A stretch of DNA of 56,802 nucleotides from the NCBI GenBank assembly GCA_050012915.1, contig JBEKGG010000001.1, positions 1 through 56,802 of the forward strand, written 5' to 3'. Positions 9,728 to 53,128 of this stretch are shown one piece after another. Positions within the stretch are counted from its first letter, which is position 1, and every line of letters begins with the position of its first letter. Below the pieces are notes generated by a model. That model was not told the DNA's origin. It searched no databases and worked only from the letters and a program-made list of their open reading frames with translations. A program made the translations under genes and the position numbers. The DNA comes from Terriglobales bacterium. Its GTDB lineage: Bacteria > Acidobacteriota > Terriglobia > Terriglobales > Acidobacteriaceae.

Positions 9728-9747
9728 ATAATCAACAGGAGAAATCT

Positions 9748-35815: not shown

Positions 35816-37387
35816 ATGGCTTCGCGTAAGGAACACACCGGGTCGCAGCAAATGAATTACGCGCCGCCGGAATTGAATCCGCAAAAAGATCTTCCCAATG
35901 GATTCTTTGATTACCTCCTTCCACTTCACAAACAATTCACGCCCTGGCAAGAGAAGCTGATAGCAAGACGCGCTGAGGTATTGCAGCGATCGCATCGCGG
36001 AGAGCCGCCGAACTACTTGCCACCGTCAGAGGCCACCACGTCCGACTGGCGGATCGAGATTCCCGAGTGGTGCGCGGATCAACGAAACCAGATGACTGGA
36101 CCCGGCGACGATGGTGAGTTGACGGTCAAACTCCTGAACTCCGGATCGCCGGCCGTGATGATAGATATTGAAGATTCCACGGCAAACATCTGGCTGCACA
36201 TCATGCAGGCGATTGAGAATACGCTCGCCGCTTACAAATACGAACTCAGCTATAACGACAAGAAGCGGGGTAAAAGGGTCAGCGTTCAGCGCTCGAAGAC
36301 CGTGACCTGGGTACGGCCGCGTGGATTGCACGTCAGCCAGGGTGGAGTGATCAAGAACGAGATCACGTCGGCTTCGCTGTTCGATCTGGCGCTGATCTGG
36401 TATCAGATCGATCCCGCATCGCTGCCGCACAATTTCTGTGTCTATATCCCTAAAAGCGAATCTGCGGAAGAGGCATTCTGGTGGCGCGACCTTTTCCAGG
36501 CTTTCGCCAAACAGAAGAAACTTCCACCCGACTACATAAAATGCATGGCTCTGGTAGAGGCGCACCCGCTGGCTTATCAGATGGAAGAATTTCTCTTCAA
36601 TCTCCGTGAGCACTGCGTGGGTTTAAACCTGGGGCGCTGGGATTACATGGCCTCGCTGATCGATTTCATGTCCGAGGATCCCAACTGGATTTTGCCGGAC
36701 CGGAATACGATCCCGCACGATGTGGCATTCTTTCAGAATTTCCGCATGTTGATGCCGGAGATCTGCCACAAGCATGGCGCCCACGCGATTGGCGGAATGA
36801 CGGCGCTTTATCCCAGCCGCTCTGACGCGGAGTTGAACGAACGCGCGCTAAAGGTACTTGAGGAAGACAAGAAGAATGAAGCCAAATGCCTGATGGATGG
36901 CGCCTGGACTGGCCATCCTGACCAGAACCAGATCGCAGTAGCACAGTTTCCGTGCCCCAATCAGATTGCAAAACGGCCTGAGCACGCGAATCCGCACCCC
37001 GACTTGCGCCCGGTTCCAAAAGGCGTTGGCAAAACGACCCTTGCAGGAACGCGAGCTGCCGTGCGCACTGTCATTCGTTATCGAAACGGAGTGCTGAACG
37101 GGAAGGGCGCCAGCTTGCTTGATGGCTACATGGAGGATCTGGCGACCGATCGCATTTACCGGTTGATGATCGCGCAACGAGTAAGACACAAGGTCAGAGT
37201 TCCCGGCGACGACGGCAAACCGGTTGAGCACAGCACTGAATTAGTGACCCGCATTTTTGACGAGGAGCTGGCGAAAATTCAACGCGATTTGCCGGCGGAG
37301 ATTGACGCCAAGGCGGCTGAGACACTTCCGGAAGCGCGGCGCATCGCCGAGGCGATGATCGCGGAGGGGCACCACTCGCCGATTTAA
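35816..37387 (+). CDS. aceB: Malate synthase A
   Basis: About 523 aa, with GLNLGRWDYMASLI and DGAWTGHPDQ blocks corresponding to the malate synthase A active-site regions. Confidence 0.85.
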   Translation: MASRKEHTGSQQMNYAPPELNPQKDLPNGFFDYLLPLHKQFTPWQEKLIARRAEVLQRSHRGEPPNYLPPSEATTSDWRIEIPEWCADQRNQMTGPGDDGELTVKLLNSGSPAVMIDIEDSTANIWLHIMQAIENTLAAYKYELSYNDKKRGKRVSVQRSKTVTWVRPRGLHVSQGGVIKNEITSASLFDLALIWYQIDPASLPHNFCVYIPKSESAEEAFWWRDLFQAFAKQKKLPPDYIKCMALVEAHPLAYQMEEFLFNLREHCVGLNLGRWDYMASLIDFMSEDPNWILPDRNTIPHDVAFFQNFRMLMPEICHKHGAHAIGGMTALYPSRSDAELNERALKVLEEDKKNEAKCLMDGAWTGHPDQNQIAVAQFPCPNQIAKRPEHANPHPDLRPVPKGVGKTTLAGTRAAVRTVIRYRNGVLNGKGASLLDGYMEDLATDRIYRLMIAQRVRHKVRVPGDDGKPVEHSTELVTRIFDEELAKIQRDLPAEIDAKAAETLPEARRIAEAMIAEGHHSPI

Positions 37388-37575
37388 AGCGGTAAAGCGC
37401 TGGCATAAATGTGCTGATAAAAAACTCTGATCGAATAGATCAATAGAATCAGCTTGACGAAGAATCCCTGATCAGTGCCCACTATCATACTGCGTCGCAT
37501 GTCGAACCTTACCGTTCGGATGGGATTCTGAAGATTGCTTCTTCCACACTAATATTTGACTATTTTCGCTGAGAA

Positions 37576-38745
37576 ATGAGGGCTATGAGCGTCGTTGAAC
37601 AGCAGGCTGCCACAATTAACTCGCTACCTCCTTTGCAACCGCCTCGCCGATATTTGTTCGGACCCGGACCGAGTATGGTTCATCCGCGCGTCTATGAGGC
37701 GCTGGCAAAGCCGATCGTTGGACACCTCGATCCATATTTCATCCAGGTGATGGGAGACGTTCAGCAGTTGGTAAAAATGGCTTATGGCACCAGCAGCGGC
37801 GCCACGCTGGTGATTTCCGGCACCGGCAGCGCGGGCATGGAAGCTTCGATAGCAAACTTCGTAGCGCCCGAAACCAAGCTGGCGATTTTTGCCAATGGAT
37901 ATTTCTCCGATCGCCTCACGGAGATGGCAAAGCGACAAGGCGCGAATGTCGCGCGGTTTGAGAAACCCTGGGGAGCAACCTTCACTGACGATGAGGCGAC
38001 GGAATTTGTTCGTCGCGAAAAGCCCGAAGTTGTGGCCTATGTTCACGCCGAAACATCGACCGGAGCGTTGCAATCAGGCAAGGCGATTTGCGCCGCCGCT
38101 CACGATAGCGGCTCGCTCGTGATTGCAGACTGCGTGACCTCGCTCGGCGGCCTGCAAATAGACTTTGACGGCACGGGCATCGACGTCGCTTATAGCTGCA
38201 CCCAAAAAGGATTGAGCTGCCCGCCCGGCTTATCTCCGATGGCTATGTCGCGAAGGGCCATGGAATTCCTGAACAGCCGCACCACCCCGCCGCGCAGTTG
38301 GTACCTCGACCTCAAGCTGATTCACGATTATTCGACGGTCTCGCATCGCTACCACCACACCGCGCCGATTTCCATGTTTTACGCATTGCGCGAGGCGCTA
38401 CTGGTTATCGCGCAAGAGGGAATTGAGAACCGATGGGAGCGGCACCGACGTTGCCATCAGTCTTTCGTCAAGGGCATAGAAGCCATGGGATTGCGCATGC
38501 ACGTTCCCGAAGGCTTCCGCATTCCAACCTTGAACACAGTGCATGTTCCAGAAGGTATTGACGAGGCGAAAGTTCGAAAACGCCTGATAGAAGATGCAGG
38601 CATTGAGATCGCTGGCGGCTTCGGTCCGCTCGCAGGGAAAGTTTTCCGCATCGGCGTCATGGGTCCCTTGGCCACCGAGGAAAATGTACAGTTTTTCCTC
38701 AAAGAGTTTGGCAAAGCGCTCCAAGCGGAGGGCTACTCCATCTGA
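37576..38745 (+). CDS. Class V aminotransferase (serine/alanine-glyoxylate aminotransferase type)
   Basis: GPGPSMVHPRV, SGTGSAGMEA and SCTQKGLSCPPGLSP (PLP-lysine) motifs. An alternative start is the ATG at 37585, with GAGGG upstream. Confidence 0.8.
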   Translation: MRAMSVVEQQAATINSLPPLQPPRRYLFGPGPSMVHPRVYEALAKPIVGHLDPYFIQVMGDVQQLVKMAYGTSSGATLVISGTGSAGMEASIANFVAPETKLAIFANGYFSDRLTEMAKRQGANVARFEKPWGATFTDDEATEFVRREKPEVVAYVHAETSTGALQSGKAICAAAHDSGSLVIADCVTSLGGLQIDFDGTGIDVAYSCTQKGLSCPPGLSPMAMSRRAMEFLNSRTTPPRSWYLDLKLIHDYSTVSHRYHHTAPISMFYALREALLVIAQEGIENRWERHRRCHQSFVKGIEAMGLRMHVPEGFRIPTLNTVHVPEGIDEAKVRKRLIEDAGIEIAGGFGPLAGKVFRIGVMGPLATEENVQFFLKEFGKALQAEGYSI

Positions 38746-38861
38746 AGCCGGGTTGGGCGGAGGACGGCAAGCCTGAAGCCTGCAGCCGTATTCCTCTGGT
38801 TTCGGGAACAACGGACAAGATCGGCGCCTCATCCAAGGACTCGCGTTAAGGGCAATAACGA

Positions 38862-40370
38862 ATGACTCTCAAGTCAGTCCAGACACTTCTCGACGTTTTG
38901 CACTTTGCGGACGGTCGCGCGGCGGTTATTGTTCCAGAGCTTGGAGTCCCCATCACCTACGATTCGCTTCGCCAGCAAGTCTGGGCCATGGCCAACGCTT
39001 TGGCTTCCATCGGCATTCGTCGCGGCGATACGGTTGCGATCGCGCTGCCGAACGGATTGCCTGCTCTGGTGAGTTTTCTAGCTGCGTCTATCGCTGGAAC
39101 CGCGGCCCCGTTGAACCCGGCGTACCCGTATGAGGAGTTTCATTTTTTTCTCGGCGACACCGGCGCGCGTATTTTGCTTTGTCCGCCGGTAGGGGCGGAG
39201 TTTGTGCGCGCCGCGGCGGCCGACCGCAAGATCCCGGTATTTTCGGTCGAAATGAATGAGCAGGGAAATGTTCACATAGCGAATGCTCCGACTGGAGCCA
39301 CGGCAACCGAGCCCACGGCCGACGACATTGCCCTGATCCTGCACACCAGCGGCAGCACGGGCCGGCCCAAGCGTGTGCCCTTGCGGCATTTCAATCTCGC
39401 CGTATCGTCGGCGAATATCGCGAACACATACACTCTTTCGGAAGACGATGTTTCACTTTGCATCATGCCGCTGTTCCACATCCACGGATTGATTGGATCG
39501 GCCATGGCCACTCTGCTCTCCGGAGGAACCGTGGTGATTCCCAGCAAGTTCAATGCGCTTTCTTTTTGGCGTACGATTCGCGAACATCGCGTAACCTGGT
39601 ATTCGGGCGTGCCCACCATGCATCAGCTTCTGCTGGCGAGGACGCACGACAAACCGGTCGAAGCAGAATCCTTGCGTTTTATCCGCTCTTGCAGCGCGCC
39701 GCTATCGGCGCAACTTATTGGCAAGATCGAGGATTTGTTTGGCGTACCCTTCGTCGAAGCCTACGGAATGACCGAAGCTGCTCACCAGATGACCTCGAAT
39801 CCATTGCCTCCGCGACACCGCAAGGCCGGGTCTGTCGGCGTGAGTACGGGGCTGCGCATTAGCATCATGGACAAGGAGGGCAATCACCTCGCCACCAATC
39901 AGCGGGGAGAAGTTGCCATTCAGGGAGCGAACGTATTCCGCGGATACGAAAATAATCCTGAAGCCAACGCCCGTGCGTTTGTGAATGGATGGTTTCGTAC
40001 CGGTGACGAAGGATTCCTCGACGCAGACTGCTATTTGCATTTGACCGGTCGAATTAAGGACATCATCATTCGTGGGGGCGAGAACATTGCGCCGCATGAA
40101 GTCGACGAGATTTTGCTTAGGCATCCCGCGGTCGCGGCGGTAGTCACCTTCGGTTGCGCGCATCCGACGCTGGGCGAAGAGGTGGCCGCGGCTGTGGTTC
40201 TGCACGAACCCAACGGATCGAGCGAATCGGCGCTGATCGAGCATTGCCGCGAATCGCTGGCGGAATATAAATGTCCAACCAAGATTTATCTGGTGGAAAG
40301 CATTCCCACCACTGCGACGGGAAAAATTCGCCGTCGCGCCGTCGCCTCCGCCCTCGCGGATCGGCCATGA
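38862..40370 (+). CDS. ANL-superfamily acyl-CoA synthetase, closest by eye to AAE3/Pcs60-type oxalate-CoA ligases
   Basis: The AMP-binding motif LHTSGSTGRPKRV is present. Several blocks match my recollection of Arabidopsis AAE3: LRFIRSCSAPL, EAYGMTEAAHQMTSNPLP, GYENNPEAN, GWFRTGDEG and YLHLTGRIKDIIIRGGENI. Superfamily membership is certain. The substrate assignment is inference. Confidence 0.6.
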   Translation: MTLKSVQTLLDVLHFADGRAAVIVPELGVPITYDSLRQQVWAMANALASIGIRRGDTVAIALPNGLPALVSFLAASIAGTAAPLNPAYPYEEFHFFLGDTGARILLCPPVGAEFVRAAAADRKIPVFSVEMNEQGNVHIANAPTGATATEPTADDIALILHTSGSTGRPKRVPLRHFNLAVSSANIANTYTLSEDDVSLCIMPLFHIHGLIGSAMATLLSGGTVVIPSKFNALSFWRTIREHRVTWYSGVPTMHQLLLARTHDKPVEAESLRFIRSCSAPLSAQLIGKIEDLFGVPFVEAYGMTEAAHQMTSNPLPPRHRKAGSVGVSTGLRISIMDKEGNHLATNQRGEVAIQGANVFRGYENNPEANARAFVNGWFRTGDEGFLDADCYLHLTGRIKDIIIRGGENIAPHEVDEILLRHPAVAAVVTFGCAHPTLGEEVAAAVVLHEPNGSSESALIEHCRESLAEYKCPTKIYLVESIPTTATGKIRRRAVASALADRP

Positions 40371-41350
40371 GATTTCTGATCGCGGGAGCCGGAGCGATCG
40401 GAGCTTATATCGGCGCTCGCATGGCCCAGGCCGGATTCGATGTCACCCTCTTTGCCCGCGGCCCACACCTTCGCGCCATGCAGGAACACGGTGTGCAGGT
40501 GAAGAGCGGCGAGGGAGATTTCATCGCCCGCCCCAAAATCGCAAGCGCCCTCGCGGATGTGGGCCCGGTCGACGTTGTTTTTCTTGGCGTAAAAGCGCAC
40601 AGCCTGCCGCAACTCGCTCCGCAATTGCATCCCGTACTGGGGCCCGACACTTCAGTTGTCAGCACGCAGAATGGAATTCCGTGGTGGTACTTCCAGGGTT
40701 TCGGCGGCGAATGGGAAGGATTGCGTCTCGAGCGCGTCGATCCGGGAGGCGTTATATCGTCGGCCATCGAAGCGCCCCGGGTAATTGGATCGATAGTGTA
40801 CTTTGCCACCGAAATTACCGCGCCCGGGGTGGTTCAGCACATCGAGGGGAATCGCATTACTCTTGGTGAGCCCGACGGCACGCGGTCTCATCGTTCCCGC
40901 CAAATTGCAGAAGCGCTGATCGCCGCTGGTTTACGCTGCCCGGTCACGGCTCGAATCCGGCACGACATTTTGGTCAAGATTCTGGGCAACGCCTCCTTGA
41001 ATCCTGTGAGCGCGCTGACGCGAGCTACGGTTGCTGAGATGCTTCGCGATCCGGGCGTTCGCGTCGTGATTCGAAACATCATGGAGGAAGTGGAAGCGGT
41101 CTCCGGTAACTTGGGGATGGAGTTGCCTGTTTCGATCGATCAACGAATTGCGGGCGCGGAAAAAGTTGGCCAGCACAAAACCTCCATGCTGCAGGATCTA
41201 GAGGCCGGCCGCTCGATGGAGTTGGAAGCGCTGGTTGGCGCGGTCGTGGAGCTCGGCGAACGCATGGGTCTCCCAATGCCCATCACTCGAACCGTGTACA
41301 GTTGCGCAAAGCTATTAGCGGAGACTGAGGCTAAGCAACTGGCAAAATAA
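40367..41350 (+). CDS. 2-dehydropantoate 2-reductase (ApbA/PanE) family oxidoreductase, candidate oxalyl-CoA reductase
   Basis: MRFLIAGAGAIGAYIG Rossmann start and a TSMLQDLEAGRSMELEALVGAVV C-terminal KPR-family block. ATGA start/stop overlap with the CoA ligase gene. The track ORF's N-terminal extension from 40271 is rejected. Confidence 0.75.
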   Translation: MRFLIAGAGAIGAYIGARMAQAGFDVTLFARGPHLRAMQEHGVQVKSGEGDFIARPKIASALADVGPVDVVFLGVKAHSLPQLAPQLHPVLGPDTSVVSTQNGIPWWYFQGFGGEWEGLRLERVDPGGVISSAIEAPRVIGSIVYFATEITAPGVVQHIEGNRITLGEPDGTRSHRSRQIAEALIAAGLRCPVTARIRHDILVKILGNASLNPVSALTRATVAEMLRDPGVRVVIRNIMEEVEAVSGNLGMELPVSIDQRIAGAEKVGQHKTSMLQDLEAGRSMELEALVGAVVELGERMGLPMPITRTVYSCAKLLAETEAKQLAK

Positions 41351-41419
41351 GCATAGCTTTCTCCACAGCGGCAAAAGAACGTGGATCGAGTTTCCCCATC
41401 TCCCAAGAAAAATAAAGGG

Positions 41420-41450
41420 TTGACAATAGATAGGACACCGGGCGTATACT
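41420..41450 (+). promoter_or_regulatory. Sigma-70-like promoter (TTGACA-N19-TATACT) upstream of the GntR-family gene
   Basis: Perfect -35 hexamer at 41420-41425 and a near-consensus -10 at 41445-41450. The 19 nt spacer is longer than optimal. Confidence 0.3.
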
Positions 41451-41462
41451 TCGTGCGGTGGC

Positions 41463-41481
41463 TGGTCCACTTATCGGACCA
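41463..41481. promoter_or_regulatory. Inverted repeat TGGTCC-N7-GGACCA, candidate GntR/FadR-type operator
   Basis: Perfect 6+6 inverted repeat between the putative -10 and the ATG (41489) of the FCD-GntR regulator. It fits the generic GntR-family operator logic (GT...AC palindromes). Confidence 0.3.
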
Positions 41482-41488
41482 CTTGAAC

Positions 41489-42199
41489 ATGGCGCTTGCC
41501 AGGACCAAACCGGACTTCGAAGTAATCCGAAGAAACAAGGTCTATGAGGAAGTCGCTCAGCAGATCGAGCGTCTTATTCTGAAAAAATTGCGCCCGGGCG
41601 ACAAACTACCGTCGGAACGGGAACTGGCTGAAATGTTAAAGGTGAGCCGCAGCTCCATCCGGGACGCGATCCGCGGGCTGGAGTTGAGGGGCCTGGTTGA
41701 GCCGCGCCAGGGAGCCGGGACAATCGTTCGCGAGCCGTCATCTGAGCCGTTGGTGAATCCTTTTGCCAACGCGCTGAAGCGCCGGCAGGAGATGGTCAGC
41801 GAGCTTTTGGATTTTCGCAAAATGCTTGAGCCGCCGTTAGCAGCGCGTGCGGCCACGCATGCTTCCGCCGATGAAATTTCTGAGATGGAAGAAATTCTGC
41901 GACGTCAAGAGGAGAAGCAGGCTCAAGGCGAGGCCGCTGTCGCTGAGGATGCAGAATTCCATTACAACATTGCTCTGGCTTCGGGGAATGGCGTGGTGCT
42001 GAAAGTGCTCGACATCATCATGGACCTGCTGCGAGAAACGCGAGAGCGTTCGCTGCAGTTGGATGGTCGGCCACAAAAATCGCTGGCCGGACACCGGCGC
42101 ATCCTGGCCGCAATCAAACGCCACGATGGCGAAGCGGCAAAGGCGGCGATGCGACGCCACATTGAGGATGTAGAAGAGATCGTACTTGACAGGTTTTAA
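41489..42199 (+). CDS. GntR-family transcriptional regulator, FadR/FCD subfamily (GlcC/LldR/PdhR-like)
   Basis: N-terminal winged HTH (KLPSERELAEMLKVSRSSIRDAIRGLELRGLVE) and a C-terminal FCD-type helical domain (EFHYNIALASGN...HRRILAAIKRHD). The ATG at 41489 is preferred over the track start at 41381. Confidence 0.85.
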   Translation: MALARTKPDFEVIRRNKVYEEVAQQIERLILKKLRPGDKLPSERELAEMLKVSRSSIRDAIRGLELRGLVEPRQGAGTIVREPSSEPLVNPFANALKRRQEMVSELLDFRKMLEPPLAARAATHASADEISEMEEILRRQEEKQAQGEAAVAEDAEFHYNIALASGNGVVLKVLDIIMDLLRETRERSLQLDGRPQKSLAGHRRILAAIKRHDGEAAKAAMRRHIEDVEEIVLDRF

Positions 42200-44659: not shown

Positions 44660-44675
44660 TGAACGAGGTTTAATC

Positions 44676-45323
44676 ATGAGCTACAGCGAACTTACGGTTT
44701 GGACGCGCGGCATCATCATGGATAAAGAAGGCCGCGATATCGTCAACTCCATTTCCGCTTCCGCCCGCATCGAAGGCAAGTACGCGCAGGCGATGGAGAA
44801 TTACGTCGACAATCCCGATCGCACCAACGCTCCCACGAGAAAATACTGCCGGGTTAGCGATAGCGTGCTCGAAAATGAACTCACATACGAAAACGAACAT
44901 CCCAACATTGTCGTTCTGGTTGAAGGCACGATGGTTAAGGGTTGGGATTACATGCGGGGCATGCCTCCCGGCGGCACGCTAGTGATCAACACGCATTACA
45001 CGCCGGATTACATGATTCGTTTTGTTCCGGGTGCCGAGCGCCTGGCGCAACTGGTGTGCGTTGACGCCGCGAAACTGGCCGACCATAAGTGGCTTTACTA
45101 TCGGCTGGGCGAACTCGGACTCGATCGTCTTTCCACCGAGGGCGCTGCCGAGCGAAACAAATCCATCGCGCCCGACATCGCCGCTCCGTTGATTGCCGCG
45201 GTGGTCAAAACCACGAGCATCGTAAAAATGGAAACGATCGAGCCGATGATTGCCAACAAACACGCATTTCACGCGGCGCTCAACGAATTGCACATCATGT
45301 CACTGAATCCAGTGGCCGTATAA
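44676..45323 (+). CDS. 2-oxoacid:acceptor oxidoreductase gamma-subunit homologue (divergent)
   Basis: Colinear by eye with PorG-type gamma subunits (EGKYAQA, RVSDS..., PNIVVLVEG, GGTLVINT, VCVDAAKLA, IAAPLIAAVVKTTSIV). The usual N-terminal GRGGQG-type glycine motif is replaced by TRGIIMDKEGRD. The gene starts 16 nt after the AAA+ gene stop. Confidence 0.6.
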   Translation: MSYSELTVWTRGIIMDKEGRDIVNSISASARIEGKYAQAMENYVDNPDRTNAPTRKYCRVSDSVLENELTYENEHPNIVVLVEGTMVKGWDYMRGMPPGGTLVINTHYTPDYMIRFVPGAERLAQLVCVDAAKLADHKWLYYRLGELGLDRLSTEGAAERNKSIAPDIAAPLIAAVVKTTSIVKMETIEPMIANKHAFHAALNELHIMSLNPVAV

Positions 45324-45337
45324 GGGAAGGATTTTTC

Positions 45338-47170
45338 ATGTCGACCAAAGGCACGCACATACCCGAATGGCTTACGGTTCCGTTTGCCGGGATCACTCCC
45401 GCGCCCTCGCAGGAAAAGGGGCAGGACCTGTTTCCCACTGGCAATTGGCGCTCAATCCGGCCGGTGTATCGAGACAAATTGCCACCCTGCAACAACGCTT
45501 GCGGAACCAATGAAAAGATTCAGGGGTATCTCGATCTGGTGAAGCGCGGCAAGTATCTGGACGCTTACGCGCTCATCAAGGAAGACATGCCGTTCCCGTC
45601 GGTCACTGGCCGCGTGTGTTATCACCCGTGCGAACAAGCCTGCAATCGCGGAAAGTACGATGAAGCGATCTCCATTCGCGCCGTCGAACGCTTTCTCGGC
45701 GATCTGGGACAGGCGTTGAAACACGACGTGGTAAAAGCTGGAGCGCCGAACGGAAAGAAAGTCGCCGTCGTCGGTTCTGGTCCAGCCGGGCACAGCGCGG
45801 CTTACCAACTTGCGCGCCTCGGCTATCAAGTAACGATTTTTGAGAAATCACCCAAGGCGGGCGGTTTGAATCGTGGGGGTATCCCGGACTGGGTGCTTCC
45901 CGCTGACGTGCTTGATCGCGAGATCGAGCGCCTGGTTGAACTCGGGATCACAATTAAGACCAATGTCGAAGTCGGCAAGGACGTCACTTGGGACGAACTC
46001 AAAAAGAACTACGATGCTTGCGTGCTGGCCGTGGGTCTCACCGAGCCGAACAGCGTGCGCGCCGAAGGAGAGAACAAAGACGGCGTGCTCTACGGTCTTC
46101 CGTTCCTTCGCGACATCGGCATGGGATCATCGAAAGTGAAGCTGGGAGCCCGTGTGGCCGTAATCGGCGGCGGAAACACTGCCATCGATTGCGCCCGTGA
46201 AGCCCTGCGCCAAGGCGCGGTGGAAGTAACCATGATCACCGTGGAAGCCAATCCGCAAGAGATGCCCGCCTCCCCGGAAGATCTGCACGACATGCTCGAA
46301 GAAGGCGTGGAACTGTTCCACGGGCGCGCTGTAACCGCGGTGCTTGGCAACGGCAAAATTGAGGCTCTGCAATTGCATCCGGCGCGTTTTTCTGGCGCCA
46401 TCAATGCCTCACCGATTACTGTCGATCGAGAAGCCTCGCCCGAACGTTTCGAAGTCGACAACGTGATCATCGCAGTTGGACAGCACGCCGCGCTCAAGTG
46501 GTTGCCGGACGAATTCAAGACTGAGCGCGGCACCATCAAGATTGACCGCTTCGGACGCCTGGGTGAGACGAACTTTTTTGCCGCCGGCGACATCGTGCAA
46601 CTCGGTTCCGGTCAGCCGCTGATGGTGGTGAATGCCGTTGGCGACGGCAAGCGTGTGGCTTTCAATCTGGACAAAGTGGTGCGTGGCGAACCGTTGCAGT
46701 CACGGACGATTCCCATCGACGTCATTGTCGATTTGGATCGCATGAACATGACATATTTCCCGCACTTCCCCCGCGTGCAGCAAACTTTGCTGGCGCCGAC
46801 AAGCCGGCGCAAAACGCAGGACGAAGTGATTCAATCGCTCTCGGAAGAGCAGGCCGTTGAAGAAGCTAGCCGCTGTTTTAGTTGCGGTACCTGCAACGCT
46901 TGCGACAACTGTTATCTCGTCTGTCCTGAGCCGTGTATCGCGCGGCCGGAACGTTCGAACGGTCTTTACAAAATTCTGGTCGATTACTGCAAAGGTTGCC
47001 GCGTCTGCATTGAGGAATGTCCGACGGGCTGCCTCGAAGGTGTGCCGGAACTCGACTTCGATACCGGCGTGGTGCGAATGGATACTGCGTTCGCCATCTC
47101 GCCCGGGCTGCATGGGCGGCAAGCGGCGGAGTTGAGGAACCTCGCGGAGCGTCCGGCGAAGAACATTTAA
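45338..47170 (+). CDS. Fusion protein: OFOR delta-subunit (2x[4Fe-4S] ferredoxin) interrupted by a GltD/SudA-like NAD(P)H-FAD-FeS oxidoreductase module
   Basis: - Start: ATG at 45338 with GGGAAGGA upstream.
- N-terminus: TGNWRSIRPVYRDK resembles the TGxWR..P motif of PorD.
- Middle: GltD-like Cys cluster region (GRVCYHPCEQACNRG) and dinucleotide folds (KKVAVVGSGPAGHSAAYQLARLGYQVTIFEK and RVAVIGGGNTAIDCA).
- C-terminus: CFSCGTCNACDNCYLVCPEP and DYCKGCRVCIEECPTGC, typical of PorD. Confidence 0.75.
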   Translation: MSTKGTHIPEWLTVPFAGITPAPSQEKGQDLFPTGNWRSIRPVYRDKLPPCNNACGTNEKIQGYLDLVKRGKYLDAYALIKEDMPFPSVTGRVCYHPCEQACNRGKYDEAISIRAVERFLGDLGQALKHDVVKAGAPNGKKVAVVGSGPAGHSAAYQLARLGYQVTIFEKSPKAGGLNRGGIPDWVLPADVLDREIERLVELGITIKTNVEVGKDVTWDELKKNYDACVLAVGLTEPNSVRAEGENKDGVLYGLPFLRDIGMGSSKVKLGARVAVIGGGNTAIDCAREALRQGAVEVTMITVEANPQEMPASPEDLHDMLEEGVELFHGRAVTAVLGNGKIEALQLHPARFSGAINASPITVDREASPERFEVDNVIIAVGQHAALKWLPDEFKTERGTIKIDRFGRLGETNFFAAGDIVQLGSGQPLMVVNAVGDGKRVAFNLDKVVRGEPLQSRTIPIDVIVDLDRMNMTYFPHFPRVQQTLLAPTSRRKTQDEVIQSLSEEQAVEEASRCFSCGTCNACDNCYLVCPEPCIARPERSNGLYKILVDYCKGCRVCIEECPTGCLEGVPELDFDTGVVRMDTAFAISPGLHGRQAAELRNLAERPAKNI

Positions 47171-47182
47171 ATCGGAGTGAAT

Positions 47183-48391
47183 ATGGCAACAGCTACTGCA
47201 GTGAAAAAGAGAACAGTTCGGATCAATGGTTGCGTGGCTTCGGCGCAGGCCGCCAAGTATGCCGATGTCGATGTGATTACGGCCTACCCCATCCGGCCTT
47301 ACACCGCGACCATGATGGCGCTGGCGCAAATGGTGGCCAACGGAGAACTTGATGCCGAATATATCGTGGCCGACAGCGAGCACTCGCAGTTAAGCATCGC
47401 GCACGGAGCTTCGTCGAGTGGCGCGCGTGTTTTCACCGGCAGTTCCGGCGTCGGAGTGCAATTCGCATATGAGCTTTACTCGCCAATTTCCGGCAGTCGC
47501 ATGCCGGTGCAAATGATGATCGCCGACCGCACTCTCGATCCTCCCGGCGATTTCGGTTCCGAGCACACCGACGCGCTTTCGACGCGCGACATGGGATGGC
47601 TCATGGGCTGGGCCTGCGACGCGCAGGAAGCGTTCGACAATCATCTGATGGGTTATCGAATCGGCGAAGACCCGCGCGTGCTTTTGCCGCAGATGATCTG
47701 CCAGGATGGCTTTTTTGTTTCGCACATCACCAGCGACGTCGAATTACCAGATTCCGGCCAGGTAAAGGAATTCCTGCCTCCGTACAAGCATCCGTATCCG
47801 CTCGATCCGCGGCACCCGGTGTCGCATGGTCCACAGATCATGCCGGAGCAGGGCCCGCCGCTTCAGCTAGAGCGGGCGCGTGCCATGGAAGGCTCGGTGG
47901 ATGTCATTGAGCAGGTTCACGAGGAGTTCGCGAGAATCTTCGGACGGCGATACGATCCCTGGGTCGAAGAGTTTATGACCGATGACGCCGAAGTTGTTTT
48001 CTTTATGCAGGGCGGTCACGCGGTGACTGCACGCTTCGCCATTCAGCACATGCGCGAAAAAGGCCTGAAGGTTGGGCTCGTACGGTTGCGAACTATCCGT
48101 CCGTATCCGACCGATCGGGTGAACGAAGTTCTAAGTAAATTTAAAGTGGTCGGCGTCATTGAAACCAACATGGGACTCGGCAGTGTGAGCAGCGGGGGCG
48201 TTTTGTACGCCGAGGTTTGTGCGGCACTCTACGAAAATCAAAAGCGCCCGTTAGTGGTTTCGTTCATGGCTGGAATGGGTGGCGAGGCCATCGTGCTGAA
48301 AGAATTTTACTGGATGACCGAGAAGATGATGAATGCGCAGAAGCGCGGGAAAATCGAAAAGCGCACGCATTGGGTCGGATTCGAAGAGTAA
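47183..48391 (+). CDS. 2-oxoacid:acceptor oxidoreductase alpha subunit
   Basis: The NGCVASAQAAKYADVDVITAYPIRPYT...SEHSQLSIAHGASSSGARVFTGSSGVGVQF pattern matches PorA/VorA/KorA domain I. The C-terminal domain II is similar. About 402 aa. Confidence 0.85.
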   Translation: MATATAVKKRTVRINGCVASAQAAKYADVDVITAYPIRPYTATMMALAQMVANGELDAEYIVADSEHSQLSIAHGASSSGARVFTGSSGVGVQFAYELYSPISGSRMPVQMMIADRTLDPPGDFGSEHTDALSTRDMGWLMGWACDAQEAFDNHLMGYRIGEDPRVLLPQMICQDGFFVSHITSDVELPDSGQVKEFLPPYKHPYPLDPRHPVSHGPQIMPEQGPPLQLERARAMEGSVDVIEQVHEEFARIFGRRYDPWVEEFMTDDAEVVFFMQGGHAVTARFAIQHMREKGLKVGLVRLRTIRPYPTDRVNEVLSKFKVVGVIETNMGLGSVSSGGVLYAEVCAALYENQKRPLVVSFMAGMGGEAIVLKEFYWMTEKMMNAQKRGKIEKRTHWVGFEE

Positions 48392-48433
48392 GTATGATGC
48401 GGGGCCTTTGCACCCTGCCATTGGGAGAAAACG

Positions 48434-49498
48434 ATGTCAGCAATTGAAGTGGAACGTCAGATACTGCCAATTCTCGGGAGCCCAAATCAGGGCGCGCGTT
48501 TTTACAACCCTGACTTACCGTCGTCCGAACCGTTCGTCCCCGGCCATCGCACTTGCGCCGGTTGCGGGCCTTCCATCCAATACCGGATGACGAGCAAGGC
48601 TTCCGGCGACAATACGATCCTGGTCGGACCGACAGGCTGTATGTATGTCGCGAACAGTTCGTATTTGTGCACGCCCTACAATGTGCCTTGGGCGCACACC
48701 CAGATTGGCAGCGCGGGCAGCTTCACCGCTGGCGTGGCAGCGGCCTATGAAGCCATGATCCGCAAGGGCAAATGGAAGGGTCAGTTTCCAAATATTATTT
48801 GCGAAGCAGGCGACGGCAGCGCTTCGGACATCGGCCTTGCCTCGATTTCAGGAGCACTTTACCGCAATCACGACTGCCTGATTATCTGCTACGACAACGA
48901 GCAGTATGCGAACACCGGCATTCAGGCCTCATCGCGCACGCCGTACGGCGGCATGACGACATTCTCCCCTCCCGGCCCCGAAGTTCCAGAAGGGAAGAAG
49001 CTGTTTCCCAAAGATCTCGCCCGCATGATGGCGGCGGGCCATCCCCACTGTTACGTGGCGACCGCAAGCGTGGGCTACCCGATCGACTTGATGAACAAAG
49101 TGCGCAAGGGACTCAACCACAAGGGCGCTGCTTATCTCATGGTCTACACGCCTTGCCAGAAGGGCTTCGTGTACGAGACGCCGCGCTCGATTGATCTGGG
49201 CCGGTTGGTCGTCGAATGCGGGCTCTATCCGATCTGGGAGTGGAATCCTGAGAAGCGCGCATACGATTACAGCTTCCGCCCGCAGAATATGCGGCCGGTG
49301 TCGGAGTATTTGAAGTTGCAAGGACGCTTCGGACATCTCCACGCTGAGCACATCGCCAAGTTGCAGCAGTTCGCGAACGAGCAGTGGAAGATGATGGGCG
49401 TCCAGCTGCCGGAGGCCTTGATTCATGCGGCAGATGCGAAGAACCTTACCAACATGGCGTCGGCGGCAGAAGCCGAGGCGGTGGCGCAAACTTTATGA
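48434..49498 (+). CDS. 2-oxoacid:acceptor oxidoreductase beta subunit (thiamine-diphosphate and [4Fe-4S] binding)
   Basis: GHRTCAGCG N-terminal cluster motif and the GDGSASDIGL...YDNEQYANTGIQASSRTP ThDP-binding motif. Confidence 0.85.
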   Translation: MSAIEVERQILPILGSPNQGARFYNPDLPSSEPFVPGHRTCAGCGPSIQYRMTSKASGDNTILVGPTGCMYVANSSYLCTPYNVPWAHTQIGSAGSFTAGVAAAYEAMIRKGKWKGQFPNIICEAGDGSASDIGLASISGALYRNHDCLIICYDNEQYANTGIQASSRTPYGGMTTFSPPGPEVPEGKKLFPKDLARMMAAGHPHCYVATASVGYPIDLMNKVRKGLNHKGAAYLMVYTPCQKGFVYETPRSIDLGRLVVECGLYPIWEWNPEKRAYDYSFRPQNMRPVSEYLKLQGRFGHLHAEHIAKLQQFANEQWKMMGVQLPEALIHAADAKNLTNMASAAEAEAVAQTL

Positions 49499-49896
49499 AC
49501 ACCAAAACCAGTGCTCCCTATCATCCTGTCGAGTCCGCGCCCGAAGCTGAGCCGGAGGGACAGGAAAGTTACATTGTTACCGAAGGCAAGAAGCGCGGCT
49601 CGACTCGCGACGTACGGCCGGAAGCGGCGTTCAATCGCTACTACACGGTTCTTCGCGTTCACGCCGGTGACGCGATCCTTACCGATAACTGGCACACCAA
49701 AGAAGTGCTCGATCACGCGCGGAATAATTTCGAGGGAGTCACGTTCGCAATGCGCACGCTCGAAGCTTGGGGCGCAATGATCGAGAACGATCACCGCGCC
49801 TACTACACGGCGGGCGGCCGGGTCTGGGTCATGGATCTGGAGCCGTCCGAAGGAAAGAAACCGCGCTTGCCCGGCACCGGAGCCGGCAAGAAGTAG
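49495..49896 (+). CDS. Hypothetical protein translationally coupled to the OFOR beta subunit
   Basis: ATGA overlap with the beta-subunit stop. 133 aa with an acidic N-terminus, a basic C-terminal tail (GKKPRLPGTGAGKK) and no motif I recognise. Confidence 0.5.
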   Translation: MNTKTSAPYHPVESAPEAEPEGQESYIVTEGKKRGSTRDVRPEAAFNRYYTVLRVHAGDAILTDNWHTKEVLDHARNNFEGVTFAMRTLEAWGAMIENDHRAYYTAGGRVWVMDLEPSEGKKPRLPGTGAGKK

Positions 49897-49903
49897 GATA
49901 TGG

Positions 49904-50266
49904 TTGCCCCGCATCCTGCTCATCGACGACACGCCGGAGATTGCCGAACTTCTGACATTCTCGCTGCGCGACCGCGGCTACGAAGTCTTTGCATCGGGAT
50001 TTACCGAGGGCATCAACGAACTGGTTGCCCAGCAGCATGCCGATGCGCTTGTACTCGACTGCTCCGTTTTCAACATGAGCGAGTCGCTCTTCGACACCGT
50101 GCGTCATCACCTCGATCATGCCGAGCTTCCCATTGTCATCATCAGTGACACGCCTGAAGAGGCCGACGCGAGTCTGCGCTCGCGAAAAGCCCGAAGAGTC
50201 TTGCTGATCCCGAAACCTTTCACCGGATCGCAGGTTGCAAGAGCGCTCGATCAACTGCTGGGATGA
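49904..50266 (+). CDS. Stand-alone CheY-like response-regulator receiver domain
   Basis: Acidic pair (LLIDDT), candidate phospho-acceptor Asp (ALVLDCS), conserved Ser (VIISD) and Lys-Pro (IPKPF). TTG start. No output domain. Confidence 0.75.
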   Translation: MPRILLIDDTPEIAELLTFSLRDRGYEVFASGFTEGINELVAQQHADALVLDCSVFNMSESLFDTVRHHLDHAELPIVIISDTPEEADASLRSRKARRVLLIPKPFTGSQVARALDQLLG

Positions 50267-50282
50267 CCGTGCAAAGATAAAT

Positions 50283-50606
50283 ATGCCTCTATGGAGCATG
50301 GACGACTGGAAGTACCTCGAGCGTGAGCTCGTCACTGATCCCAACGGCAGGCAGTGGACCGTGGCGCTGATGGATGTGCTGGGACAGGAAGGAGATCCCG
50401 AGATGCCGAACAAGCTGCTGGAACTGCAGTATTCCTCGGGCCGGTATTTCACGCTCGTCTATGCTGACGGGGGAGCGCTACAACGCGAGCGCGGCTACGC
50501 TTCGCTCGAAGAAGCCACGACCGCCTATGAGAATCTGCTGATGGGCGTGATCGATGGCCGTGTCGATCCATCGCAGCCCGTATTCCGGCAGGATCTGGAA
50601 GATTGA
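50283..50606 (+). CDS. Hypothetical small protein
   Basis: ORF of 107 aa (123 aa from the upstream in-frame start at 50235). No recognisable motif and a weak ribosome-binding site, so coding status is only moderately supported. Confidence 0.35.
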   Translation: MPLWSMDDWKYLERELVTDPNGRQWTVALMDVLGQEGDPEMPNKLLELQYSSGRYFTLVYADGGALQRERGYASLEEATTAYENLLMGVIDGRVDPSQPVFRQDLED

Positions 50607-50635
50607 TGATCCGGGGCCCTTTGAGGACGGCGTCT

Positions 50636-51415
50636 CTAGCGGCCCGGATCGAGATCTCTCATCACAACATGCAGGACTTGCCCGGTTCTTCGCGCGTCGT
50701 TCTCGGATGCGACCACCTTCGCGCTGCCGCTCTCGTCGCGGTAGTTCCACGCGACGGCCGGCAGCCGGGCGCACCCGCCGCGAATGAGCCCTGTTTTCTC
50801 GGCGACGGCGATGCGAGTCTCGAACGACCAATCAGCAATCTTTCCTGCAGGCGCGCCCGAAATAGCCAGCGCCGCCAGTCCCTTGGTCTCCAGCGCATCG
50901 GTTACGATAGCTTCCAGGATTCCGCAGGAAGTGTGCAGTGACGCGTCAAAGCGCCCTTGCTCCAGGTCGTGCCGGCTATCGGCATAAGTTTGCTCGAGGA
51001 TGGGCCGGAGTTCGGCATTGTGAACAAAATCGAACCGATGAGGAGGCGGTGCCGCCAATGACGCAGAAATGACCGGCCCATCATCGGTTCCGGAGAGCGA
51101 GGCAACCGCTTGCTCGAGCACGTCGAGCAGTCGGTTGGCGATCTCGGCCGGCGCCGCGCCTTCGACTGCACGACCCGATGCTGAACGCATCAGGAAAGCT
51201 TGGCTAAACGATCGCGCAAGCCAATGCGCTTTGCTGCCTCCGGACAATTGATTGATGGTGACGCCGCAGTCTTCCTGCCAGACTCGGGTGGCTGTGATCG
51301 CGGATTGGTCGGAAGAGTCAGTATTCAACGCATCCCGAAGCTGCAGTCCGCGACGGATAAGGCCATCGAGGTGGGAAAGGTAAGTCTCGATTTGAGTTTG
51401 CAGAGTCTGGTCCAT
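50636..51415 (-). CDS. Hypothetical all-alpha protein, C-terminal region weakly HEPN-like
   Basis: 259 aa, the only minus-strand gene in this block. The C-terminal 130 aa or so look helical and carry an R-x5-H motif (RRTGQVLH) close to the C-terminus, as in HEPN domains. This is a low-confidence family guess. Confidence 0.4.
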   Translation of the reverse strand: MDQTLQTQIETYLSHLDGLIRRGLQLRDALNTDSSDQSAITATRVWQEDCGVTINQLSGGSKAHWLARSFSQAFLMRSASGRAVEGAAPAEIANRLLDVLEQAVASLSGTDDGPVISASLAAPPPHRFDFVHNAELRPILEQTYADSRHDLEQGRFDASLHTSCGILEAIVTDALETKGLAALAISGAPAGKIADWSFETRIAVAEKTGLIRGGCARLPAVAWNYRDESGSAKVVASENDARRTGQVLHVVMRDLDPGR

Positions 51416-51616
51416 CAGTTGCGCTTCGGACTATTTTTACGTCGAGGCCGTCTCTGCGGAATTTGAGTCGACATCCCGCGCATCAGAAGCAAGCCTCTTC
51501 GGCGATGCGATTGTTCTTGAGCGCACAGTGAAACGAATCACTATTTCGGCGATTCACGAATCCTTGACTTTCGTCTACGGGGAGTGATAAATTCGCTGCC
51601 GCAAAGTGGTTCGATC

Positions 51617-51627
51617 ACTGGACCAGT
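51617..51627. promoter_or_regulatory. Palindrome ACTGGACCAGT upstream of the OFA-family transporter gene
   Basis: Perfect 5+1+5 palindrome. Its complement contains CTGGTCCA, the same 8-mer found in the inverted repeat upstream of the GntR-family gene (41462-41469). Confidence 0.2.
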
Positions 51628-51781
51628 TTAGCATATTGTTTTGCAATCGATTGCGTACCGCCTGGAAGGTCTATGTTTGCGAAAAGCGCCATTTCGCGCG
51701 GAGCTGTAGGCGGGATTGGGGCCGACGGTTTTCGTGGGATGCGATTAAAGTCCAGCACGCTGTCGCGGAGGTATACCTAAA

Positions 51782-53128
51782 ATGGCTGCATCTCCAGGCG
51801 CTCTGATTCACCCCTCTCGTATTCCCAACCGTTGGATCCAGTTAGTCGCTGGCATTGTCGCAATGATGGCGATCGCGAATATGCAGTATGCCTGGACTCT
51901 GTTCACCAAGCCCATCCAGGCTCACCTGCATGTGTCGCTGGTAGCGGTTCAATGGACCATCACTCTGTTCGTCGCTTTGGAAACATGGCTTGTGCCTTTT
52001 GAAGGATACCTCGTAGACAAAATCGGACCGCGATTCATGCTGGGTATCGGAGCGATCCTGGTTGGGCTGGGTTGGGTTGGAGCCGGCCGCGCCGAAACCA
52101 TAAGCAACCTCTATTTCTGGTACGCACTGGGGGGCGTGGGAGCGGGAGCAGTTTACGGAGGAACCATCGGCAACGCTCTGAAATGGTTCCCGGATTATCG
52201 CGGCTTATGTGTCGGCCTCACTGCCGGGGCTTACGGCATCGGCACGGCGGCGACAATCTCTCCGATCGCCTCCATGCTGAAAACTTCGGGCTATCAGCAC
52301 ACATTTGTAGTCTGGGGAATCATCCAGGGATTTGTCGTGCTCGCGGCCGCCCTGTTCCTGGCCAAGCCGCCTGCAGGGTGGACGCCGCCGAACTGGAAGG
52401 AGAAAGAGGGCAAGATCAGGGCGAAAGTGAAGACTTCGGCGATCGACATGACCCCAGTCGAGATGCTCCGCCAACCGTCATTCTATGTCCTCTATCTGAT
52501 GCTGACCATGTTAGCTTTCGGCGGTATTGTGGTTACCGTACAGCTCGATCCCATGGCGACCTCGTACCATGTGGACAACGTCATCGTGGTGTTTGGCATG
52601 ACCGCGTTGGTCCTGGCCATTACAGTCGACCGGATTCTGAATGGCTTGACGCGTCCGTTCTGGGGATGGGTGTCCGATCACATCGGCCGCGAAAACGCCA
52701 TCTTCATCTCCTTCGTTCTGGAAGCGATCGCGGTCTTCGCCCTGCTCCAACTCATCAGTCATCCGGTTTGGTTCGTAGCATTATCAGGCCTGTGTTTCTT
52801 TGCTTGGGGCAACATCTATTCGTTATTTCCTTCGATCACCGGCGACCTGTACGGAAACAAATGGGCCACCACCAACTACGGTATTTTGTATACCGCTAAG
52901 GGAGCCGCTACACTGTTTGCCGCACCTGGTGCCGCGTGGCTATTTGCCAAGACCGGATCGTGGAGTAAGGTTTTTTGGGCGATGATTGCGTGCGATCTGG
53001 TTGCCGCTTTCATGGCTCTGCTGTGGCTAAAGCCGCTGGCAGCGCGTGTGGTCCGAGAGTCAGAGCGCACGGCCGCGGCAGGAACCCTACCCGCGGACTC
53101 CTCGATAAAAGCACGGATACTGGCATAG
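51782..53128 (+). CDS. MFS transporter of the oxalate/formate antiporter (OFA) family
   Basis: The N-terminus NRWIQLVAGIVAMMAIANMQYAWTLFTKPI is characteristic of OFA/OxlT-like transporters. 12 TM layout, 448 aa. Confidence 0.75.
   Translation: MAASPGALIHPSRIPNRWIQLVAGIVAMMAIANMQYAWTLFTKPIQAHLHVSLVAVQWTITLFVALETWLVPFEGYLVDKIGPRFMLGIGAILVGLGWVGAGRAETISNLYFWYALGGVGAGAVYGGTIGNALKWFPDYRGLCVGLTAGAYGIGTAATISPIASMLKTSGYQHTFVVWGIIQGFVVLAAALFLAKPPAGWTPPNWKEKEGKIRAKVKTSAIDMTPVEMLRQPSFYVLYLMLTMLAFGGIVVTVQLDPMATSYHVDNVIVVFGMTALVLAITVDRILNGLTRPFWGWVSDHIGRENAIFISFVLEAIAVFALLQLISHPVWFVALSGLCFFAWGNIYSLFPSITGDLYGNKWATTNYGILYTAKGAATLFAAPGAAWLFAKTGSWSKVFWAMIACDLVAAFMALLWLKPLAARVVRESERTAAAGTLPADSSIKARILA

Follow-up and report, generated by a model that had tools for sequence, protein, structure and literature searches.

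A predicted two-branch oxalate utilisation island with an oxalate oxidoreductase homologue carrying an inserted pyridine-nucleotide module in a Terriglobales bacterium

Oxalate turnover is usually estimated from the genes for formyl-coenzyme A (CoA) transferase (frc) and oxalyl-CoA decarboxylase (oxc), and in Methylobacterium extorquens oxalyl-CoA is supplied by Frc and energy is obtained from Oxc together with formate oxidation. A different enzyme, oxalate oxidoreductase (OOR; EC 1.2.7.10; PDB 5C4I, 5EXD, 5EXE), is present in Moorella thermoacetica, an anaerobic acetogen. It is an oxoacid:ferredoxin oxidoreductase (OFOR), a type of enzyme of which nicotinamide adenine dinucleotide (NAD)-coupled examples are also known, such as Azoarcus PadEFGHI, a phenylglyoxylate:NAD+ oxidoreductase. 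In the literature that we searched, OOR is described for Moorella only, and the use of oxalate by soil bacteria is treated almost wholly via frc and oxc. For Kribbella, an oxalate pathway independent of frc and oxc, running via oxalyl-CoA and glyoxylate, has been proposed, at least in the outline available (Robertson and Meyers, 2022, as summarised in PMC13409138). Here we analyse a stretch of 56,802 nt from a Terriglobales bacterium (contig JBEKGG010000001.1, positions 1-56,802; hereafter the window), whose features were called from a listing of open reading frames (ORFs) and from Pfam and NCBIfam scans. A gene island at positions 35816-53128 encodes an OFOR that, judged by homology and gene order, is an OOR homologue and an orthologue of the Moorella enzyme. 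We read the island as a system by which a peat acidobacterium with an aerobic or facultative lifestyle uses oxalate in two branches, oxidising one part of it and assimilating the other, and put the probability of this reading at about 0.65.

The strongest evidence comes from the alpha and beta subunits. The alpha subunit passed the NCBIfam OOR-alpha equivalog model NF045791 (589.2 bits, cut-off 500), with the archaeal PorA model second at 337 bits. Against the Moorella OOR structure 5C4I, alpha and beta gave 513 and 394 bits, respectively, compared to 234 and 204 bits for the nearest pyruvate:ferredoxin oxidoreductase (PFOR), and by BLAST the two subunits are 58% and 57% identical to those of Moorella. 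A first-pass annotation of the same DNA, made without database searches, had labelled this OFOR as divergent, which was wrong given its closeness to the Moorella enzyme. The assignment to the enzyme family is not new, because annotation pipelines already name these alphas 'oxalate oxidoreductase subunit alpha'.

The hallmark of OOR is the motif YPIRP, whose Arg (Arg31 of alpha) stands where YPITP has Thr; together with Asp116, this Arg drives a 'bait and switch' mechanism of the plug loop, and Arg109 is a conserved carboxylate ligand (PMC5020499). In the alpha subunit of the window, YPIRP occupies residues 37-41 and Arg118 is the counterpart of Moorella Arg109, and both are invariant in an alignment of 86 alphas that includes Terriglobales, Actinobacteria, Moorella and others. 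The plug ('switch') loop RTLDPPGDFG, which holds Asp116/Phe117 in Moorella, is identical to that of Moorella and equally invariant among the 86 alphas. The comparison with the oxalate-binding residues of Moorella, which the first-pass annotation had proposed, thus came out in favour of oxalate at the Arg of YPIRP, at Arg109 and at the Asp116 plug loop. Given such a fully conserved oxalate site, glyoxylate is an unlikely substrate for this OFOR.

Gene order provides independent evidence that the window enzyme is an OOR orthologue. The Moorella locus consists of genes for a GntR/FCD regulator, a CDC48-like ATPase (733 aa), delta (315 aa), alpha and beta, followed by a transporter of the lactate-permease family, and the order from gntR to beta is the same in the window. 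Over 678 aa, the window ATPase shows 49% identity to its counterpart 5' of the Moorella OOR genes, and the GntR/FCD regulator, which occupies the same position as the Moorella GntR/FCD gene upstream of OOR, is 28% identical to it. The core of the earlier proposal, an OFOR acting on oxalate, is therefore retained, and homology, active-site residues and synteny now stand behind it in addition to gene context. Its second part, independence of frc and oxc, holds within the 56.8-kb window only, where neither a formyl-CoA transferase (CoA_transf_3) nor an Oxc-type thiamine pyrophosphate (TPP) decarboxylase occurs among the scanned ORFs (the majority of those 150 aa or longer), as the first-pass annotation had also noted. 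Nor was any formate-producing enzyme found among the scanned window ORFs.

The island forms one block with nearly all genes on the + strand, the exception being an orphan gene at 50636-51415 (-). The ligase, reductase, malate synthase, aminotransferase, OFOR and OFA transporter of the earlier gene list were all found at 35816-53128, where the features are:

35816-37387, + strand: malate synthase A-like protein (Pfam MS_TIM-barrel and MS_C)
37576-38745, + strand: class-V aminotransferase of the alanine/serine-glyoxylate type (Pfam Aminotran_5)
38862-40370, + strand: probable oxalate-CoA ligase, AMP-forming (oxalyl-CoA synthetase; Pfam AMP-binding and AMP-binding_C)
40367-41350, + strand: probable oxalyl-CoA reductase, PanE/ApbA family, PanE2-like (the ORF opens at 40271; likely ATG at 40367)
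41463-41481, no strand: palindrome TGGTCCACTTATCGGACCA, candidate GntR/FCD operator (TGGT-N11-ACCA)
41489-42199, + strand: GntR/FCD-family regulator (Pfam GntR and FCD; the ORF opens at 41381, likely start 41489)
42341-44659, + strand: CDC48/VAT-like double-ring AAA+ ATPase (TIGR01243; exact start uncertain)
44676-45323, + strand: OOR gamma subunit, OFOR domain III only (part of the NCBIfam OOR-delta model)
45338-47170, + strand: chimeric delta subunit, 610 aa, GltD-like/ferredoxin (Pfam Fer4_20, Pyr_redox_2, Fer4_7)
47177-48391, + strand: OOR alpha subunit, domains I-II (NF045791, 5c4i_A)
48434-49498, + strand: OOR beta subunit, TPP and proximal [4Fe-4S] cluster (NF045792, below its cut-off; 5c4i_C)
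49495-49896, + strand: 133-aa orphan (no Pfam match)
49904-50266, + strand: stand-alone receiver domain (Pfam match)
50283-50606, + strand: 107-aa orphan (no Pfam match)
50636-51415, - strand: 259-aa orphan, divergent from the transporter gene (no Pfam or NCBIfam match)
51607-51625, no strand: second copy of the palindrome, TGGTTCGATCACTGGACCA, 5' of the transporter gene (TGGT-N11-ACCA)
51782-53128, + strand: OFA-family transporter of the major facilitator superfamily (MFS), OxlT-like (TIGR04259)

The single delta subunit of Moorella corresponds to two proteins in the window. Gamma aligns to positions 14-210 of the NCBIfam OOR-delta model, which is 316 positions long, and is 40% identical to residues 14-208 of Moorella delta. 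In the chimeric delta, residues 14-43 align to Moorella delta 228-255, the first strand of domain V (PTGNWRxxRPV), and residues 519-574 align to 261-313, including both CxxCxxCxxxCP [4Fe-4S] motifs. The Moorella delta sequence is interrupted here, inside ferredoxin domain V, by a module of ~475 residues that resembles NfnB and GltD in its Fe-S, flavin adenine dinucleotide (FAD) and NAD(P) parts (Pfam Fer4_20, 6e-18; Pyr_redox_2, 9e-32). Its closest solved relatives are NfnB-like and StnC-like proteins (9bov_A, 310 bits; 9n5u_A (NfnA), 291; 8oh5_C, 273; 4ylf_B (NfnB), 208), and the chimeric protein has 17 conserved cysteines, five N-terminal and twelve C-terminal. The built-in NAD(P)H module of the first-pass annotation is thus present; it is located in a separate gene product, fused to a ferredoxin domain, and not in alpha or beta.

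One residue bears on the choice of cofactor. At the end of the dinucleotide-binding beta2 strand (ITVE, VSLE or LSLE), Glu303 is invariant across Terriglobales, Actinobacteria and a further locus (L082), at a point where the NfnB-like template 9bov_A has Arg-Arg. By the standard rule for Rossmann folds this points to NAD(H) as cofactor, and the electron acceptor is probably NAD+ instead of ferredoxin. Electron bifurcation by the NfnB-like module was considered and dropped, because the operon holds no NfnA-like second flavoprotein and no [2Fe-2S] partner; electrons would be expected to run straight from the Fe-S clusters to FAD and NAD+ instead.

Three architectures of delta can be distinguished: fused, in Moorella; split into gamma and a 93-aa delta, in two other lineages (L086, L087); and GltD-inserted, in Terriglobales, Actinobacteria and L082. 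The alphas that accompany the GltD-inserted form (hereafter the GltD form) make up a clade of their own, with 57-78% identity inside it and 46-59% to the classical clade, which suggests a single origin of this form. GltD-delta type subunits as such are widespread, with 3788 representatives at an E-value of at most 1e-30. In some uncharacterised proteins (P0260, P0274, P0289), the GltD-like and ferredoxin module is fused to POR gamma (~755 aa) or to a POR_N plus TPP-binding protein (1131 aa). This spread and these fusions mark the GltD-delta module as a recurrent OFOR accessory, and built-in pyridine-nucleotide modules seem to be common in uncharacterised OFORs. The specific novelty is the pairing of the GltD-delta module with an OOR core.

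Conservation was assessed by mapping the island proteins with tblastn in 80 related loci, the best of at least 420 species-level loci with a close relative of alpha (one genome per species); several of the absences in this set are contig ends. Gene order is kept in most of the 80 loci. Alpha and beta occur in all 80, the GltD subunit in 76, gamma in 73, GntR in 71, the ligase in 63, the reductase in 62, and CDC48 and the MFS transporter in 60 each. The alphas are 89-95% identical to that of the window, and all 80 loci come from metagenome-assembled genomes (MAGs), all but one of them assigned to Terriglobales or other Acidobacteriota of peat, bog, palsa and forest soils. The odd one out, a 3972-bp contig binned as Steroidobacteraceae (L022, JBKQSA010000061.1; 94% alpha identity), is probably a binning error rather than a gene transfer. 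Outside this set, the gamma/GltD-delta/alpha/beta module is present in two actinomycete isolates, Actinomadura sp. NBRC 104412 and Spirillospora sp. NPDC048911, where small genes, an MFS transporter and a GntR/FCD regulator come after it; both genera are aerobic. The window's own sequence was found in soil and peat metagenomes, and short contigs of a peat metatranscriptome, many of them 99-100% identical, cover malate synthase, aminotransferase, ligase, gntR, cdc48, all OOR genes and the transporter, which suggests that the island is expressed in situ.

The four genes upstream of the regulator would form the assimilation branch. The ligase has full-length domains of the ANL fold, and its best PDB matches are the oxalyl-CoA synthetases 6qjz (419 bits), 5ie0 (AAE3; 409) and 8aff (yeast Pcs60; 377), the next family following at 262 bits. 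It passes no NCBIfam equivalog, its best match there being the FadD7 family, below the cut-off. Taken together, it is a probable oxalate-CoA ligase of the AAE3/Pcs60 type (EC 6.2.1.8). With PanE2 of M. extorquens, the sequence of which (WP_015822665) was taken from the supplement of PMC12686821, the reductase shares 49% identity across 323 aa (295 bits). This score exceeds the 216 bits obtained with the best solved ketopantoate reductase (3ghy), and the protein passes NCBIfam NF005089. PanE2 is reported to have been used as an oxalyl-CoA reductase (PMC8411744), and the same function is probable for the window protein. An Arg that follows the first beta-alpha-beta strand (TLFARG) also occurs in M. 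extorquens PanE2 (FIARS). Since the start codon of the reductase gene overlaps the stop codon of the ligase gene (ATGA), the two are suggested to be translationally coupled.

The other two enzymes fit the same branch. The malate synthase has a clear MS_TIM-barrel (1e-53), scores 314 bits against TIGR01344, below its cut-off of 594.5, and has malate synthase A 3cuz as its best PDB match (231 bits); in the related loci its gene lies directly 5' of the ligase or aminotransferase gene. The aminotransferase matches the alanine-glyoxylate aminotransferase 1vjo best (362 bits), followed by AGXT/SPT entries at ~250 bits, and is a variable member, present in 33 of the 80 loci. Judged from their sequences, each of the four enzymes would make or use oxalyl-CoA or glyoxylate, as would fit an oxalate substrate. 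The assimilation branch to glyoxylate drawn up in the first-pass annotation is upheld by the two closest matches, the ligase lying nearest to the oxalyl-CoA synthetases and the reductase to PanE2.

At the other end of the island, the OFA/OxlT-like MFS transporter passes TIGR04259, the equivalog of oxalate/formate antiporters, by a wide margin (481.3 bits, cut-off 335) and barely reaches the model of L-lactate transporters (320.2 bits, cut-off 320); it is a probable oxalate importer. Between beta and the transporter lie four further genes. Those for the 133-aa orphan, the receiver domain and the 107-aa orphan were found in 79, 77 and 77 of the 80 loci, and that for the mostly helical 259-aa orphan, between the OOR operon and the transporter, in 66. 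A Pfam search at an E-value of up to 1 returned nothing credible for the three orphan proteins, and a single-sequence AlphaFold model of the 259-aa protein (mean predicted local distance difference test score, pLDDT, of 42) was unusable. In actinomycete loci (L081, L089, L090), three different small genes of ~90-113 aa take the position of the three that follow beta in Terriglobales.

Regulator and transporter may be linked by a common operator. The 56.8-kb window holds exactly two copies of the pattern TGGT-N11-ACCA, one lying 8 nt ahead of the gntR start (41463-41481) and the other 5' of the transporter gene (51607-51625). The first copy is preceded by a promoter-like element, TTGACA-19-TATACT, as read from the sequence, and the second lies just past a promoter-like site at 51564-51593. 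As the motif was derived from these two sites themselves, its real test is conservation across loci, and the palindrome was found at the gntR position in ~70 of the 80 loci and at the MFS gene in 59, being rare elsewhere. Exact and relaxed-core matches carry the weight here; with two mismatches allowed, seven matches were obtained against 7.5 expected, which is no enrichment. The palindrome fits an operator of the FadR/FCD type and is a candidate link between the gntR-cdc48-OOR operon and the transporter gene. None was found near the OOR operon of Moorella or other classical-clade loci, so the operator is clade-specific. A scan for promoters and terminators across the island gave no more sites than shuffled sequence and was not used as evidence, except to note the one site beside the second operator copy.

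The partnership between OOR and the CDC48-like ATPase crosses phyla. The ATPase gene lies directly 5' of the OOR genes in Moorella, in 60 of the 80 Terriglobales loci and in four other lineages (L085-L088), namely Caldinitratiruptor, an Ignavibacteriales MAG, an Actinomycetota MAG and an unassigned JGI metagenome contig. The window protein scores 779 bits against TIGR01243, below the cut-off of 803, and has a Walker A motif in both rings and an aromatic pore loop in each (KFYG and KWLG). The Walker B motif of its D2 ring (protein residues ~595-602) reads DT in 58 of the 60 Terriglobales copies and DE in Moorella and the other lineages, and the second ring may accordingly bind ATP without hydrolysing it. 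From these features the ATPase looks like a substrate-threading unfoldase, and a role in maintaining or activating OOR is a speculative suggestion of ours. A literature search for a link between OOR and AAA or CDC48 proteins returned nothing relevant and no explanation of the partnership.

Elsewhere in the window lie genes for an aa3-type cytochrome oxidase, a Rieske/cytochrome b-c complex, fumarase and malate:quinone oxidoreductase (Mqo), as well as glycogen genes, and we deduce that the host has an aerobic respiratory chain. The oxidase and the Rieske/cytochrome b complex, whose cytochrome b carries a fused c-type cytochrome domain, lie at 341-7280 (-), and fumarase and Mqo at 8249-11286 (+); Mqo would oxidise malate made by the malate synthase of the island. 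A non-coding stretch of 586 nt (35230-35815) lies 5' of the malate synthase gene and carries a terminator-like hairpin at 35708-35725, with no Rfam match; Rfam and tRNA scans of the entire window gave no match either. On its other side the island is flanked by a methyl-accepting chemotaxis protein at 53151-54827 (-), found in 13 of the 80 loci, for which oxalate chemotaxis is conceivable, and by a second MFS transporter of the aromatic-acid/sialate symporter type at 55043-56362 (-), found in 31 of the 80.

From the observed homology, motif conservation, synteny, operator pattern and RNA-library contigs, the following scheme can be proposed, in which the substrate, the preference for NAD+, the direction of electron flow, the pairing of regulator and operator and the role of the ATPase are predictions. 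Oxalate would enter via the OxlT-like MFS transporter. A four-subunit OOR (gamma, chimeric delta, alpha and beta) would bind it at a site of the Moorella type, with the YPIRP Arg and the Asp plug loop, and decarboxylate it on TPP, independently of CoA. The two electrons would move along the beta cluster and both clusters of domain V to the inserted NfnB/GltD-like module, where FAD would hand them to NAD+. The net reaction would be oxalate + NAD+ -> 2 CO2 + NADH, with NADH feeding the respiratory chain; the transfer of electrons from oxalate to NAD+ is strongly downhill, because the CO2/oxalate couple lies far below NAD+/NADH. The remaining oxalate would be converted to glyoxylate by the ATP-dependent oxalate-CoA ligase and the PanE2-type reductase, and glyoxylate would be consumed by malate synthase, which would join it with acetyl-CoA to give malate, and by the aminotransferase, which would give glycine. 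The GntR/FCD regulator, sensing the state of the pathway, would control its own operon (gntR, cdc48, OOR) and the transporter gene through TGGT-N11-ACCA, and the CDC48-like unfoldase would serve as an OOR-specific accessory factor, co-inherited with the enzyme.

A number of observations weigh against this scheme. Beta scores 445.9 bits against NF045792 (cut-off 590) and gamma 173.8 bits against the OOR-delta equivalog NF045790 (cut-off 230); the shortfall with the delta model is a matter of architecture, since delta is split into two proteins and interrupted by the module. With alphas that are only 46-59% identical to those of the classical clade, a drift in substrate is possible, and the functions given for all members of the GltD-form clade are predictions from sequence. 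At the N-terminus of the chimeric delta, the first Fer4_20 motif has only two of the four cysteines expected for its cluster, so that the predicted electron path is not fully accounted for; two extra conserved cysteines, 513 and 516, might compensate for them. The choice between NAD and NADP hangs on one residue rule. An OxlT-type antiporter would have no obvious counter-substrate if formate is not made, and no operator was found upstream of the malate synthase or ligase genes. Around seven loci with complete flanks have no ligase or reductase beside OOR, which makes oxidation and assimilation separable modules, and 20 loci are without the ATPase. Finally, RNA-library contigs can contain DNA, and the depth of contigs says little about expression levels.

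Some of these points feed into alternative explanations. The enzymes may work as proposed, with frc and oxc elsewhere in the genome carrying much of the dissimilatory flux and OOR serving as a side route or for use at low oxygen. The window covers just 56.8 kb of a genome of several megabases, oxc sequences assigned to Acidobacteria were among those obtained in a marker survey (PMC10192776), and a transporter of the oxalate/formate antiporter type makes most sense where formate is produced. Nevertheless, neither gene is in the window, an ATP-dependent ligase makes Frc unnecessary for the formation of oxalyl-CoA, and every step needed is encoded in the island; we regard this explanation as possible but somewhat unlikely. 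A related question is whether the host lives on oxalate at all. In oxalate-rich acidic peat, the island might serve detoxification or pH and metal homeostasis, oxalate being co-metabolised during growth on other carbon. The low energy yield of oxalate would be in line with this, as would a malate synthase that needs acetyl-CoA from outside in an island without glycerate-pathway or serine-cycle genes, and the variable presence of the aminotransferase. A dedicated regulator and transporter, an energy-conserving oxidoreductase and assimilation genes look more like a catabolic regulon, however, and we consider this use of the island unlikely; as it concerns physiology and not mechanism, it would be compatible with the proposed enzymology.

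The two other alternatives concern the enzyme itself. The inserted module might reduce NADP+, its main role then being to supply NADPH to the PanE2-type reductase, with one oxalate oxidised per oxalate assimilated, and not chiefly to feed respiration. The nearest solved modules (NfnB, StnC, GltD and DPD) are NADPH enzymes, the Arg in TLFARG suggests that the reductase uses NADPH, and both branches are adjacent in most loci. We find this rather improbable, because the invariant Glu in place of the Arg-Arg of the NfnB-like template is the usual signature of NAD, and because the OOR operon also occurs without ligase and reductase nearby. Alternatively, the OFOR might act on another small 2-oxoacid (glyoxylate, pyruvate or oxaloacetate), its oxalate-like features being inherited and non-functional. 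Glyoxylate had been raised in the first-pass annotation, the Moorella OOR also oxidises a few other 2-oxoacids without CoA, and the distance of the GltD-form alphas from the classical ones, with beta and delta below their equivalog cut-offs, leaves room for a change. Such a substrate is nonetheless highly improbable: the YPIRP Arg and the entire plug loop are invariant in 86 of 86 alphas, the regulator and the OFA/MFS transporter are tied to the operon by the common operator, and the oxidation of glyoxylate would defeat the assimilation branch next to it.

If the two-branch reading is right, OOR, so far characterised in one anaerobic acetogen, extends to aerobes, with oxalate oxidation coupled to NAD+ as a new overall reaction; we know of no EC number for an oxalate:NAD+ oxidoreductase. 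Literature searches returned nothing relevant on a NAD-dependent oxalate dehydrogenase or oxidoreductase or on OOR in Acidobacteria, and three things appear to be undescribed: the NAD-module architecture, the way it is combined with the ligase/PanE2 route, and its distribution among aerobic soil bacteria. A bolder and more doubtful extension is that the whole clade, Terriglobales and aerobic actinomycetes alike, possesses an O2-compatible oxalate:NAD+ oxidoreductase as its sole dissimilatory route, without frc and oxc, with the CDC48-like unfoldase as a dedicated maintenance or activation factor. If that were true, these abundant bacteria of acidic soils would be a major oxalate sink unseen by marker-gene surveys, and if the at least 420 species-level carriers use the NAD-linked OOR together with the ligase/PanE2 route, much of the oxalate turned over in such soils escapes these surveys. 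The OOR-CDC48 ATPase partnership also becomes testable, and the named isolates with the four-gene module make experiments feasible.

Compared to the Moorella OOR, the window enzyme has homologous alpha and beta subunits, domain III and cluster part of domain V, and shares with it the YPIRP Arg, Arg109, the Asp116/Phe117 loop and the GntR/FCD and CDC48-like ATPase genes upstream. It differs in that the single 315-aa delta of Moorella, comprising domains III-V, is replaced by gamma and the 610-aa chimeric protein, so that three subunits and an external ferredoxin stand against four subunits and a fused FAD/NAD(P) module. The neighbouring transporter belongs to the lactate-permease family in Moorella and is an OFA-type MFS protein in the window, and the host is anaerobic in the former and carries genes of an aerobic respiratory chain in the latter. 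As in M. extorquens, a PanE2-type reductase (49% identity) is placed to convert oxalyl-CoA to glyoxylate; unlike there, oxalyl-CoA would be made by an ATP-dependent ligase, OOR would supply reductant, and frc and oxc are lacking in the window. The best solved relatives of that ligase over its full length are AAE3 of Arabidopsis (5IE0) and its Lathyrus counterpart (6QJZ), together with yeast Pcs60 (8AFF); the window enzyme is bacterial, its gene is probably coupled in translation to that of a PanE2-type reductase, and no Oxc lies downstream.

The Kribbella proposal, as far as the outline in PMC13409138 goes, likewise concerns an aerobic soil bacterium that uses oxalate without oxc via oxalyl-CoA and glyoxylate. 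It differs in leading carbon to formate via glycolate and C1-tetrahydrofolate and, in that outline, without mention of an OOR, whereas the window has a dedicated one. With the OxlT/Frc/Oxc system of Oxalobacter formigenes the island shares a transporter that passes the OxlT equivalog; it has no formate-making decarboxylase, and its energy would come from NADH and not from electrogenic antiport. Known NAD(P)-coupled OFORs resemble the window enzyme in having an OFOR core wired by Fe-S clusters to a GltD/NfnB-like flavoprotein (NfnB-like: 4YLF, 8OH5, 9BOV), and the NCBIfam subunit models for 'NADH-dependent phenylglyoxylate dehydrogenase' match the window proteins weakly. In contrast to these CoA-acylating enzymes, the core in the window is an OOR that is predicted to be oxalate-specific and CoA-independent, and its flavoprotein is inserted within a ferredoxin domain instead of forming a separate epsilon subunit.

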